DNA of 26,481 bases from a virus. Lineage: Duplodnaviria; Caudoviricetes. The stretch covers positions 1-26,481 of IMG/VR virus record IMGVR_UViG_3300010376_000117; one strand, given 5' to 3'. The first letter of the stretch is position 1, and each line of letters starts with the position of its first letter. The position numbers and the translations under genes were made by a program. Positions 24,273 through 26,481 of the stretch are shown piece after piece. Under the pieces are notes generated by a model, which saw only the letters and a program-made list of their open reading frames with translations, searched no databases and was not told where the DNA came from.

Positions 24273-24915
24273 CCTAAACCATCCCATAAAGTGGGGGATC
24301 ACCAAAATGCTTTTTTGGGGGGGAGGGGTGGGGCCGCCGCATCTGCCGCCTGGAACCCCAACGCCCCCGCGCACGCGCGCGCGCCACACGGCCGCCAGGG
24401 CTCCCACCAGCCTGTTCTCATACTACAGGTTGTACCAGGAGGCCGGGTTGCATTTCCGCTCTGTGGCCAGCAGCAAAAAAAAAGCGGAAAATCCAGCGAT
24501 TTCAACAGGACAGCGAGGACAACTTCATGATTGGGAAGCGTATGGGAAGGGAGCTCGAGCGGAGCGAGCGACCAAAAAATTTGAGCTCGAAATTTTCGCC
24601 AAAAAAAAACCGATTCGCTGAGTGATTCGACTCTCTCTGCCCTTCCAACCGACGGGCCGAATCTTCTTGTCTCCCTGCTGCGGGGTGGAGAAGTTGTCTT
24701 CCCCCTGTCTTGCTTCCCGTCTTGGTGGTCTGCTTTGTGGCAGCGGCTCTCTTTGCCGCTGCGGTGCATTCTCTCGTCTTGCCTATGTGTGGATGGCTGG
24801 TTCGTCTGAGCCGCGCGCGAGGGTAGGTATGCAAAATTGCCTTGTCAACTAGCTGGTGGTTGTTGTGGGGTTTAGGGTGCAACCTAGAGGTTGTATTTTG
24901 GGGCGGTTTTGGGAG

Positions 24916-24924
24916 TTATCCACA
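24916..24924 (+). promoter_or_regulatory. Consensus DnaA box TTATCCACA
   Basis: Perfect 9/9 match within the large intergenic region. Only a single perfect copy was seen. Confidence 0.45.
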
Positions 24925-24933
24925 GGAAAGTTT

Positions 24934-25058
24934 GATCACGAATTGTTACAGAGTGTTACAGGCTGTGAGGAGGTTGGCATGCTTCATTGCATAGCTCTTT
25001 TTGCTGCACTGCGGTGCAGATCTACCGCGGCGCAGCGTAAATGTAACATTTTGTGATC
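24934..25058. repeat. 17-bp inverted repeat pair (15/17 match), candidate operator sites
   Basis: gatcacgaattgttaca (24934-24950) and tgtaacattttgtgatc (25042-25058). tgttacag also occurs at 24944 and 24954. Confidence 0.65.
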
Positions 25059-25081
25059 GGCTCAAATGATTTTTTTCAACT

Positions 25082-25119
25082 CTCCCCAATTGACTCCCTC
25101 TTAGTTGGGGAGCAATCCT
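25082..25119 (+). promoter_or_regulatory. Candidate rightward promoter overlapped by an inverted repeat
   Basis: TTGACT (25090-25095) with a weak -10 region (CAATCCT), bracketed by ctccccaa (25082-25089) and ttggggag (25105-25112). Confidence 0.45.
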
Positions 25120-25264
25120 CTGGTCAAGTTAACCGGGATGGAGATGAGACACGGATGGACGAGCGGTCGGGGAGTGAGGCACCAGCCCTCCCTGTCTTGG
25201 AGTTCCGGACAGCGAAGCGAGGACGCCTAGCACCGGAGCGAGGAGAGAGAGAAAAGCTCCCCAC

Positions 25265-25324
25265 CCTTTCGTATGGCGTAGAGGACGCCACTGACGAGTG
25301 CCCCGGACGGGCCGAAACGAGAGG
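25265..25324 (+). ncRNA. Hammerhead ribozyme, type III
   Basis: Stem III CCUUUCGU/ACGAGAGG, cleavage triplet GUA (cut after 25273), stem I UGGCGU-AGAGG-ACGCCA, core CUGACGA, stem II G(U)GCCC-CGGAC-GGGCC, then GAAA. Confidence 0.9.
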
Positions 25325-25332
25325 ACTCTCAC

Positions 25333-25575
25333 ATGACCGAGCGACCGACTGCAAAACACCTTGCCGTCTCTATGACGGCCGAAGCATGGAACGACTTGTT
25401 GTGTATTCTGTACATGTACATTCATCGGACGGACGGCGTAGTTTTGTCGGCCGATGCGGAGACGCTCGCGGAGTGCATTCGCGAGCAAGTTGGCACTCGC
25501 ATACGCGCCTTGTTTCAGGCTGACGCTATTGCAGCCGCGGAAGATCTTAGGAGCATTTATGACTTTCACCTTTGA
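25333..25575 (+). CDS. Hypothetical protein, 80 aa
   Basis: SD GAGAGGA 7 nt upstream of the ATG. Confidence 0.7.
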   Translation: MTERPTAKHLAVSMTAEAWNDLLCILYMYIHRTDGVVLSADAETLAECIREQVGTRIRALFQADAIAAAEDLRSIYDFHL

Positions 25576-25747
25576 GCGTCGAATGAACGACAACCGGGTG
25601 GTATCCAGCCGCCGGCGATCGACCTACGTGTTTGCGGCGGACTGTGGATGCCGTAGGACAATGGCCTTTTTCCCAATGGAGGTTCCTCCCTCCATTGAGG
25701 ATACCTGCAAGCATGAGGAACCGAGTAGTGAAACGCGCTCTAAGTGA
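25559..25747 (+). CDS. Hypothetical protein, 62 aa
   Basis: SD AGGAG (25549-25553) before ATG 25559. MTFTFERRMNDN...CGC...CKH. Confidence 0.6.
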   Translation: MTFTFERRMNDNRVVSSRRRSTYVFAADCGCRRTMAFFPMEVPPSIEDTCKHEEPSSETRSK

Positions 25748-25791
25748 GCGCGTCTGCATGGGTGGCCACCATGCACTGATGATCAGGCCAC
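25728..25791 (+). ncRNA. Hammerhead ribozyme, type II with pseudoknot
   Basis: GAAA (25730-25733), stem III CGCGCUC-UAAGU-GAGCGCG, GUC site (cut after 25754), stem I UGCAUGG-GUGGCCA-CCAUGCA and core CUGAUGA. Stem II is minimal. Loop GUGGCC pairs with the 3' tail GGCCAC (25786-25791). Confidence 0.8.
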
Positions 25792-25804
25792 AGGAGACTC
25801 TCAA

Positions 25805-26479
25805 ATGTCCGCAAATATCGATACTTCTACCGGAAAGCCGGCTTTCGCTTTTGTCGGCGCCCGTGAGGCTATTTGGCACCGCGTGGGCTCGCAGATGCGA
25901 GCCGGGCAGTCCATGGATGACTGGCAGTCCGCTACCGGGCTGATGTGGGAGGCGATCAAGGCGCCGGTCCACACGTGGATCGACGGCACCCTGGTGGAGG
26001 TGAACAACCTCCACACGATCTACCGGTCTGACACGCATGCCTTTCTTGGCCACGGGTCGGACCAGTACACGCTGGATGGTGTGCAGCCGCGTGACAGCCT
26101 TGATTTTTTCTCTAGCTACATTGGTCATGATGACCGCTTCCGCGTTGACACGGCTGGCGCCCTCAAGGGCGGTGCCGTGATTTTTGCGACGGCGGTCTAT
26201 GACGGCGAGGTTACGATCGGCGGCGATGCGCACACCTCGCATCTGCTCTTTTCTACGAGCTATGACCAGTCCTTGGCGACGACGGTGGCCATGACGGCCG
26301 TGCGGGTAGTGTGCGCCAATACACTGTCGGCGGCGGTAGCCGATAGCGGTCGTGGAAAATCACTCATCAAGGTGCGGCACAGCACGACGTTTGACGCGAA
26401 TCGCGTGGGCAAGCAGCTAGCGGAGCTCGCGCAATCGATCGAGCGCTACAAGGCTGTCGGGGACAAGATGGCCGCGACC
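25805..26479 (+). CDS. DUF932/DUF945 (TIGR03299-like) phage/plasmid protein, partial (runs off window end)
   Basis: Not in the ORF track because there is no stop in the window. SD AGGAG, then MSANID..WHRVG..GLMW..TAGALKGG..LLFSTSYD..VRVVCANTL..KVRHS. Confidence 0.85.
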   Translation, partial: MSANIDTSTGKPAFAFVGAREAIWHRVGSQMRAGQSMDDWQSATGLMWEAIKAPVHTWIDGTLVEVNNLHTIYRSDTHAFLGHGSDQYTLDGVQPRDSLDFFSSYIGHDDRFRVDTAGALKGGAVIFATAVYDGEVTIGGDAHTSHLLFSTSYDQSLATTVAMTAVRVVCANTLSAAVADSGRGKSLIKVRHSTTFDANRVGKQLAELAQSIERYKAVGDKMAAT

Positions 26480-26481
26480 TA

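Follow-up and report, generated by a model that had tools for sequence, protein, structure and literature searches.

The window analysed here, i.e. the whole stretch of DNA under study, is an entire virus record of 26,481 bases from soil and represents an uncultured phage. Its minus strand carries terminase, head-tail, major head and tail genes. A mostly non-coding stretch begins at ~24,410 and is followed by a plus-strand block that reaches the window end and contains, in this order, a type III hammerhead, an orphan ORF of 80 aa, a type II hammerhead and a DUF932 gene. Two hammerheads on one strand thus bracket a short gene in a phage genome, which is the hallmark of the known gene-flanking hammerhead clusters. 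As no sigma-70 promoter was found in 24300-26481, the transcript start and the "early" status are deduced from the layout, and on this ground the plus-strand block appears to be an early operon.

The first hammerhead is directly preceded by a structured non-coding leader (25160..25264, plus strand), which abuts stem III and is weakly more stable than shuffled sequences (z -1.98 for 25160-25273; z -1.77 for 25060-25273). An Rfam scan of this leader (plus strand) gave no match, and no riboswitch family was detected with Rfam in 25000-25900. A 122-codon frame starting at 25155 passes through the ribozyme and lacks the GC pattern of coding DNA. Translational coupling from an upstream gene was considered and rejected, since in the window no ORF of at least 45 codons has its end 80 nt or less from stem III. 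Several other features were noted in this region: the sequence TTATCCACA at 24916-24924, in the non-coding DNA that separates the two gene blocks, which we take to be a match to the DnaA box; a 25-codon ORF in the leader (24979-25056, plus strand) with a very strong Shine-Dalgarno (SD) sequence GAGGAGG (-12.9 kcal/mol), possibly encoding a small peptide; and a 12-bp leader hairpin with the loop CUCCCUC (25082-25112, plus strand).

Judged by its bases, the segment 25265-25324 qualifies as a type III hammerhead, its core being intact, and both the motif and its overlap with the SD of the following ORF are real. Positions 25265-25335 read CCUUUCGU A UGGCGU AGAGG ACGCCA CUGACGA GUGCCC CGGAC GGGCC GAA ACGAGAGG ACUCUCAC AUG. 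On the plus strand, the predicted ribozyme comprises the 5' strand of stem III (CCUUUCGU, 25265..25272), i.e. the anti-SD strand that remains on the 5' cleavage product; the GUA triplet (25271..25273, aligned to our model R1 and to RF00008), with a predicted cut 3' of A25273 that is placed by the hammerhead consensus; stem-loop I (25274..25290), with 6 bp and a loop, AGAGG, that repeats the SD strand of stem III; the catalytic core CUGACGA (25291..25297); stem-loop II (25298..25313), with a closing G-C pair, a U25299 bulging directly after this first pair, 4 bp and the loop CGGAC; the core GAA (25314..25316); and the 3' strand of stem III (ACGAGAGG, 25317..25324), with the SD core GAGG at 25321-25324. 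The stem III pairing proposed in the first-pass annotation was thus confirmed: ACGAGAGG at 25317-25324 and CCTTTCGT at 25265-25272 form eight contiguous pairs (in order C-G, C-G, U-A, U.G, U-A, C-G, G-C, U-A). All core positions (C3 U4 G5 A6 N7 G8 A9, G12 A13 A14, A15.1-U16.1 and H17) are present, the core-adjacent pairs 1.1-2.1, 10.1-11.1 and 15.1-16.1 are U-A, G-C and A-U, and stem III is open. None of the stems of this hammerhead carries an inserted domain, and the loops are 5 nt long. Inspection by eye revealed no clear pseudoknot between loops I and II (a U is possible as the first base of loop I, and the last base of loop II is C); loop II does not have the 3' A that is common in the set on which R1 was built. 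The heptamer AGAGGAC is present twice in the window, in loop I (25280-25286) and in the SD strand (25320-25326), so that the anti-SD strand has two possible partners.

Model R1, made from 59 phage type III ribozymes with the window excluded (59 of 82 size-matched candidates, near-duplicates being removed by hand), recognizes the site with 42.6 bits (E 9e-11), the next best site reaching 10.6. When applied to 23 other loci, R1 gave 22 matches of 28-66 bits; the score of the window lies inside this range but below its median. The Rfam model RF00008 gave 18.2 bits (E 0.72) and did not reach its gathering cut-off of 48.5. Indeed, only one of the 16 RF00008 matches in 20 phage loci exceeded the cut-off, i.e. 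phage type III ribozymes are mostly under-scored by this model. Among 150 shuffled windows searched on both strands with a structural filter there was not a single type III or type II motif, and the core-plus-GAGG pattern is expected by chance 0.01 times.

The SD of the first gene, GAGAGGA (25319-25325), lies with six of its seven bases inside stem III and ends 7 nt before the ATG at 25333. Only the four nucleotides GAGG pair with the 16S tail (in the sequence that we assume for this tail), and all four are inside the stem. The pairing of this SD with 16S rRNA (-5.8 kcal/mol) is weaker than that of the DUF932 gene (-7.4 kcal/mol). The 80-aa ORF itself (25333..25575, plus strand) belongs to no family and has no relative. 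Searches in viral contigs revealed no relatives, a protein search returned the ORF itself alone, the 1.84-billion representative set contained itself and one match without a significant stretch, and the best hit in the ESM Atlas (0.82) was at lead level only; the DNA of 25100-25850 had only matches of 29-32 bases, inside the ORF, in 50,697 phage records. Its GC contents by codon position are 0.59/0.42/0.60, with the dip at position 2 typical for coding DNA, and the GC3 of 0.60 compares with 0.75-0.81 in known genes. Gene callers disagree about the start: one call has 80 aa from 25333 (P0002), and the other has 67 aa from the second ATG (P0001) and comes from a contig covering the whole region. 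A DNA run, possibly the source of the record, shows the stretch on a single contig. The second ATG has no SD (+1.2 kcal/mol). The spacer CUCUCA-AUG behind the SD is common to both plus-strand genes (25326-25335, 25798-25807); in its fuller form the shared sequence is ACUCUCA-AUG.

The second ribozyme is a type II hammerhead (25726..25792, plus strand; 43 bits with RF02276, cut-off 37) with a predicted cut after C25754. As read from the sequence, its loop I GUGGCC (25762-25767) can pair with GGCCAC (25786-25791); a U.U stands at the closing position of stem II. Directly after this putative pseudoknot follows the SD of the DUF932 gene, AGGAG (25792..25796, plus strand), which is free and is not unmasked by cleavage: its predicted opening cost is 3.2 kcal/mol before and 3.4 kcal/mol after the cut. 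The DUF932 gene (PF06067, phrog_1221; 25805..26481, plus strand) is cut by the contig end; its best relative shares 45%. No type III hammerhead was found at DUF932 loci, neither in three loci nor in a further set (0/80), and a type I hammerhead was present in 2 of the 80. Cuts at both hammerheads of the window would free an RNA of ~480 nt (25274-25754) carrying the 80-aa ORF alone. Relatives of the window's own locus, with kin sought through loci, were not found.

The energetics of the lock were predicted with ViennaRNA. Stem III has a pair probability of 0.74-1.0 in four of five folding windows and of 0.14-0.17 in the fifth (25050-25500). In growing transcripts its predicted probability is 0.03 when the 3' end is at 25322 and 0.91-0.99 at 25325, i.e. 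the ribozyme needs the GG of the SD for closing, and stem III closes before the AUG is made. As the stem can form only once this GG has been transcribed, folding and ribosome loading would be mutually exclusive. Upon release of the 5' product, the predicted cost of opening the SD decreases from 5.0-5.3 to 3.0 kcal/mol, and that of the footprint from 8.3-9.3 to 5.7 kcal/mol; a second model gave 4.7 and 2.0 kcal/mol for the SD, and a third one, with the core held open, 7.7 and 2.7 kcal/mol. The SD opening cost hence drops in all three models, with a predicted gain of 2-5 kcal/mol. The RBS calculator uses a slope of 0.45 per kcal/mol, which converts this gain arithmetically to an estimated ~2.5- to 10-fold increase in initiation. 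After release, a weak 4-bp GAGA/UCUC hairpin (25319..25330, plus strand; -3.3 kcal/mol, P 0.26-0.30) is predicted to partly re-mask the SD. The lock is stronger at 20 °C (6.9-7.3 versus 4.3 kcal/mol).

The predicted stability of the 8-bp product complex is about -9 to -13 kcal/mol. Association of such strands proceeds at 1e7-1e8 per M per min, from which half-lives of seconds to ~4 min can be estimated at -9.7 to -11 kcal/mol and of hours to weeks at -14.6 to -17.5 kcal/mol. The stem of the window (8 bp, -9.7 kcal/mol) is longer and more stable than the median of 55 unbiased stems without a nearby SD (5 bp, -5.2 kcal/mol); five of these 55 reach 8 bp, and five are stronger than -9.7 kcal/mol. 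The window's flank did better than shuffled flanks by a marginal difference only (p about 0.05), and the window had been chosen for this very feature.

How common is such masking? Two scans blind to the SD (243 loci, each scan from 7/64 parts of the viral collection) provided 62 distinct type III ribozymes. An SD-led ORF follows within 45 nt in 27 of them, compared to 7.8% of random positions, and the placement ahead of a gene is therefore real. However, 24 of these 27 SD-led ribozymes have no SD base in stem III; contiguous stem III includes at least two SD bases in 3/27 and at least three in 1/27 of the unbiased cases. If bulged pairing is counted, 7/27 gain at least 2.5 kcal/mol on release. 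Three SD-directed scans (92, 120 and 127 loci) added 37 further type III ribozymes, and a scan of bacterial-genome contigs, in which 5/120 loci passed the filter and mostly looked spurious, was dropped from the statistics altogether. Among the clusters with a nearby SD, 5/21 cover it, versus 3.2-4.0 expected from ordinary stem lengths (P 0.17-0.35). Phage type III hammerheads thus do not generally mask the SD, nor is masking enriched in them; the usual design is a hairpin, a short stem III and a free SD. Two further ideas did not hold. Over 46 clusters, there was no support for the lock as a mark of the ribozyme that comes first in a transcript (p 0.61; 0.82 for those with a nearby SD). That C-rich 5' flanks generally extend stem III over the SD was rejected: most of these flanks form the 3' side of a separate hairpin, and the real sequences did better than shuffled flanks in only 26/46 clusters.

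The scans also revealed other arrangements. On the minus strands of L123 (two copies), L212, L435 and L436, stem III of a type III ribozyme is directly followed by ATG; in L435 and one L436 copy an upstream stop codon ends at the 5' strand, so that the ribozyme fits exactly between stop and start, and L123 and L212 have a G-rich, SD-like run on the 5' side of the ribozyme, so that cleavage would separate this run from the ATG (a layout of the OFF type). L053, L068 and L165 share the motif TTTGACAT(C/T)GTGAA immediately 5' of stem III, which we take to resemble the boxA antitermination element. A conserved hairpin with an internal loop of the AGGCGG/AGUAGG type is located 5' of stem III in L380, L381, L581 and L681, with no Rfam match for the three of these loci that were searched. 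In AT-rich phages (L014, L032, L038, L050, L023), type I hammerheads are arranged in tandem with a common stem I (GGTTAA/TTAACC), and each is followed after 12-20 nt by a start codon without SD.

One family of arrays keeps the lock on its first gene (L044/L709, L498, L503, L521, L539, L542, L546, L652/L707 and L711-L714; these 12 loci represent about three sequence clusters and are not independent events). Here, the first ribozyme is of type III, and its stem III of 8-10 bp (-12 to -17.5 kcal/mol) holds a perfect SD. In those family loci for which enough DNA was available (9/12), type II ribozymes (up to six, in L711) are located ahead of the later genes, which have the same ribosome-binding site as the first gene, left free. 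The median predicted SD opening cost changes from 10.6 to 1.7 kcal/mol upon cleavage for the 12 type III-led first genes and from 2.2 to 2.4 kcal/mol for the 27 type II-led later genes. The window exhibits this pattern weakly (4.7/2.0 for gene 1 and 3.2/3.4 for the DUF932 gene), with a gain on release of 2.7 versus about 9 kcal/mol in the family. It has the same layout, i.e. a type III ribozyme first, with the SD in stem III, and then a type II ribozyme with a free SD. In contrast to the family arrays, which have a perfect SD and a shared leader before each gene, its two leaders differ and its stem is weaker.

In an alignment of 11 family loci and the window, the eight core-proximal pairs of stem III are paired in 12/12 rows. 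The variation within the family consists of C/U changes opposite G, and the sole changes on both sides (two) come from the window; they count as covariation only if the window is kin of the family. Stem III of the window aligns with that of the family, whereas stems I and II, leader and genes reveal no clear kinship. A register slipped by 3 nt in the 10-bp family was also considered; it is 90% paired, but its covariation is not above that of shuffles, and we discarded it. Two smaller groups with other sequences (L053/L068 and L380/L581/L681) keep the lock as well. L347 is a III-then-II array with a free SD.

Further features are shared by many of these arrays (L044, L503, L521, L546, L652/L707, L711-L714). 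A hammerhead stands before nearly every gene, and a stem II of 3 bp is common to all type II units; a ribozyme could re-form from the two ends of a single-gene fragment, and the fragment could circularise; and all genes have a common ribosome-binding site, to which the first ribozyme is complementary in its 5' strand. In L542, L652/L707, L711, L712 and L714 a near-identical non-coding leader is present 60 nt 5' of stem III, the arrays being otherwise different; it is possibly a structured RNA with a ribozyme-made 3' end.

What, then, could stem III do for the first gene? The hammerheads of the array would cut the presumed early transcript into single-gene mRNAs. Stem III would close as soon as the polymerase has released the GG of the SD, when no AUG has yet been made, so that folding would beat the ribosome. 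The cut after A25273 would leave the leader held by 8 bp that would melt in seconds to minutes, and the released product would start with stem-loop I as a 5'-OH hairpin and end at the type II cut. As stem III holds the SD of the first gene, efficient translation of the 80-aa gene is predicted to require that the leader is first cut off and released. We give about an even chance to the reading that the type III hammerhead is a modest, constitutive gate coupling translation of the first gene to RNA processing. Such a gate would change initiation few-fold to about ten-fold and would make translation follow processing without sensing a signal. The first-pass annotation had proposed that self-cleavage and loss of the 5' fragment would unmask the ribosome-binding site. 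This follows from the geometry, and engineered analogues work; however, the predicted gain is small, and the hairpin re-masks the SD (P about 0.3). Its further proposals, a switch and a timer, are unsupported. For a natural ON-switch, the predicted structure does place the SD in a cleavable stem, but there is no sensing domain, and for a timer the estimated product release within seconds to minutes would permit a brief delay at most. The small gain, the re-masking hairpin, the lack of an aptamer or other input and the fast release together point to a constitutive gate or a brief delay.

The gate is favoured by the strength of the motif, the second hammerhead closing the gene, the dependence of folding on the SD bases, the longer and stronger stem III and the existence of a family with a locked first gene. 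Furthermore, the modelled opening cost falls upon release in all three models and stays unchanged for the type II-led SD, and by analogy engineered SD-masking ribozymes give 5- to about 100-fold effects in the available text of PMC5052635. Counted against it are the rarity of masking in unbiased samples (1/27), the free SD of L347, a lock much weaker than that of the family, the residual hairpin, the one long fold in which stem III is lost, the low RF00008 score, the loop II without 3' A, the disputed start and the absence of type III hammerheads at DUF932 loci (0/80). A plain processing cassette with an incidental overlap, in which the ribozyme trims the leader and protects the 5' end of the mRNA, is a possible but rather less probable explanation; the SD would be in stem III because the leader is compact, and output would hardly depend on cleavage, given rapid cutting and release and a weak lock. 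The survey suits this explanation, as type III ribozymes often precede SD-led starts (27/62) with no SD base in the stem (24/27) and full SD cover is not enriched, and so do the gain of only 2.0-2.3 kcal/mol in one model and the processing reading published in the main text of PMC3088659. It fits less well that stem III depends on the GG of the SD for its formation, which gives the overlap a physical cost either way, that the stem of the window is in the top tenth for length and stability and that the lock persists in families despite C/U changes opposite G and despite bulged variants.

A slow or conditional ribozyme, by which Mg2+, temperature or a phage factor would time the first gene, seems unlikely to us. 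The idea is based on the atypical loops, the bulged stem II and the second AGAGG in loop I competing for the anti-SD strand. The low RF00008 and below-median R1 scores, the duplication of AGAGGAC in loop I and SD, the stronger lock at 20 °C and the suggestion in the main text of PMC3088659 that slower phage variants are regulated are consistent with it, but the core matches the consensus, no stem contains an inserted domain and the estimated release takes seconds to minutes. A similarly low probability is assigned to the overlap being meaningless, either because translation starts at the second ATG (67 aa), because the ORF is not expressed or because the RNA misfolds or the ribozyme is crippled. 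The 67-aa call from the contig covering the whole region, the orphan nature and low GC3 of the ORF and the stem III probability of 0.14-0.17 in the 25050-25500 fold speak for this, whereas the second ATG without SD, the ACUCUCA-AUG spacer common to both genes, the coding-like GC dip at codon position 2 and the intactness of all core bases and of the three stems speak against it.

The constitutive gate may be one case of a natural cleavage-gated ribosome-binding site in hammerhead arrays, where silencing affects the first gene alone and ends once the leader has been cut off and has dissociated; in the family with the strong lock, the tail of the leader thus freed is complementary to the ribosome-binding site common to all array genes and could repress the entire early operon as an antisense RNA. 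The window would then be a weaker member. This broader view is tentative, and we consider it doubtful at present. The purpose of phage hammerheads has been open since they were catalogued, single-gene mRNA processing being a proposal only, and an SD inside stem III gives them a directly testable job. The arrays offer a built-in control, as gene 1 and the later genes have one ribosome-binding site in common, which is locked only in the former. The window locus is a weak example with an orphan gene, and the 10-bp family is the better test case.

Gene-flanking hammerhead clusters have been published before. According to the main text of Perreault et al. 2011 (PMC3088659), hammerheads flank single prophage genes, for which single-gene mRNA processing was proposed, a hammerhead of the haloviruses HF1/HF2 is located 13 nt before an early gene, and slower phage variants were suggested to be regulated. 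The words "translation" and "ribosome" are absent from this main text, and SD masking by stem III is not described there. A full-text search of the literature available without subscription found no natural SD-masking hammerhead, and the available text of PMC12192606 and PMC10353319 contains nothing on natural SD masking. The window resembles the Perreault clusters, as represented in that main text, in the mixed-type hammerheads bracketing a short phage gene on the presumed early strand and in the type II member with a loop I pseudoknot. Like RF00008 (clan CL00010), its first ribozyme has the core CUGANGA/GAAA/NUH, loop-closed stems I and II and an open stem III; unlike the type III members of RF00008, it scores only 18.2 bits, has a bulged U in stem II and uses stem III a second time as ribosome-binding site. 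If the gate is real, it is a natural counterpart of an engineered ribozyme design. In the accessible text on such designs, an engineered type I hammerhead of E. coli has its SD masked in an extended stem I (PMC7445771), and twister ribozymes in P1/P3 formats mask the SD and yield 5- to about 100-fold more expression when active than when inactive, cleavage being without effect when the SD is free (PMC5052635). The window shares with these constructs, as described there, an SD that is paired in a stem whose partner strand is cut off (PMC7445771, PMC5052635); it differs from them in being natural, in using stem III of a type III ribozyme, in having no aptamer and in its weaker predicted lock.
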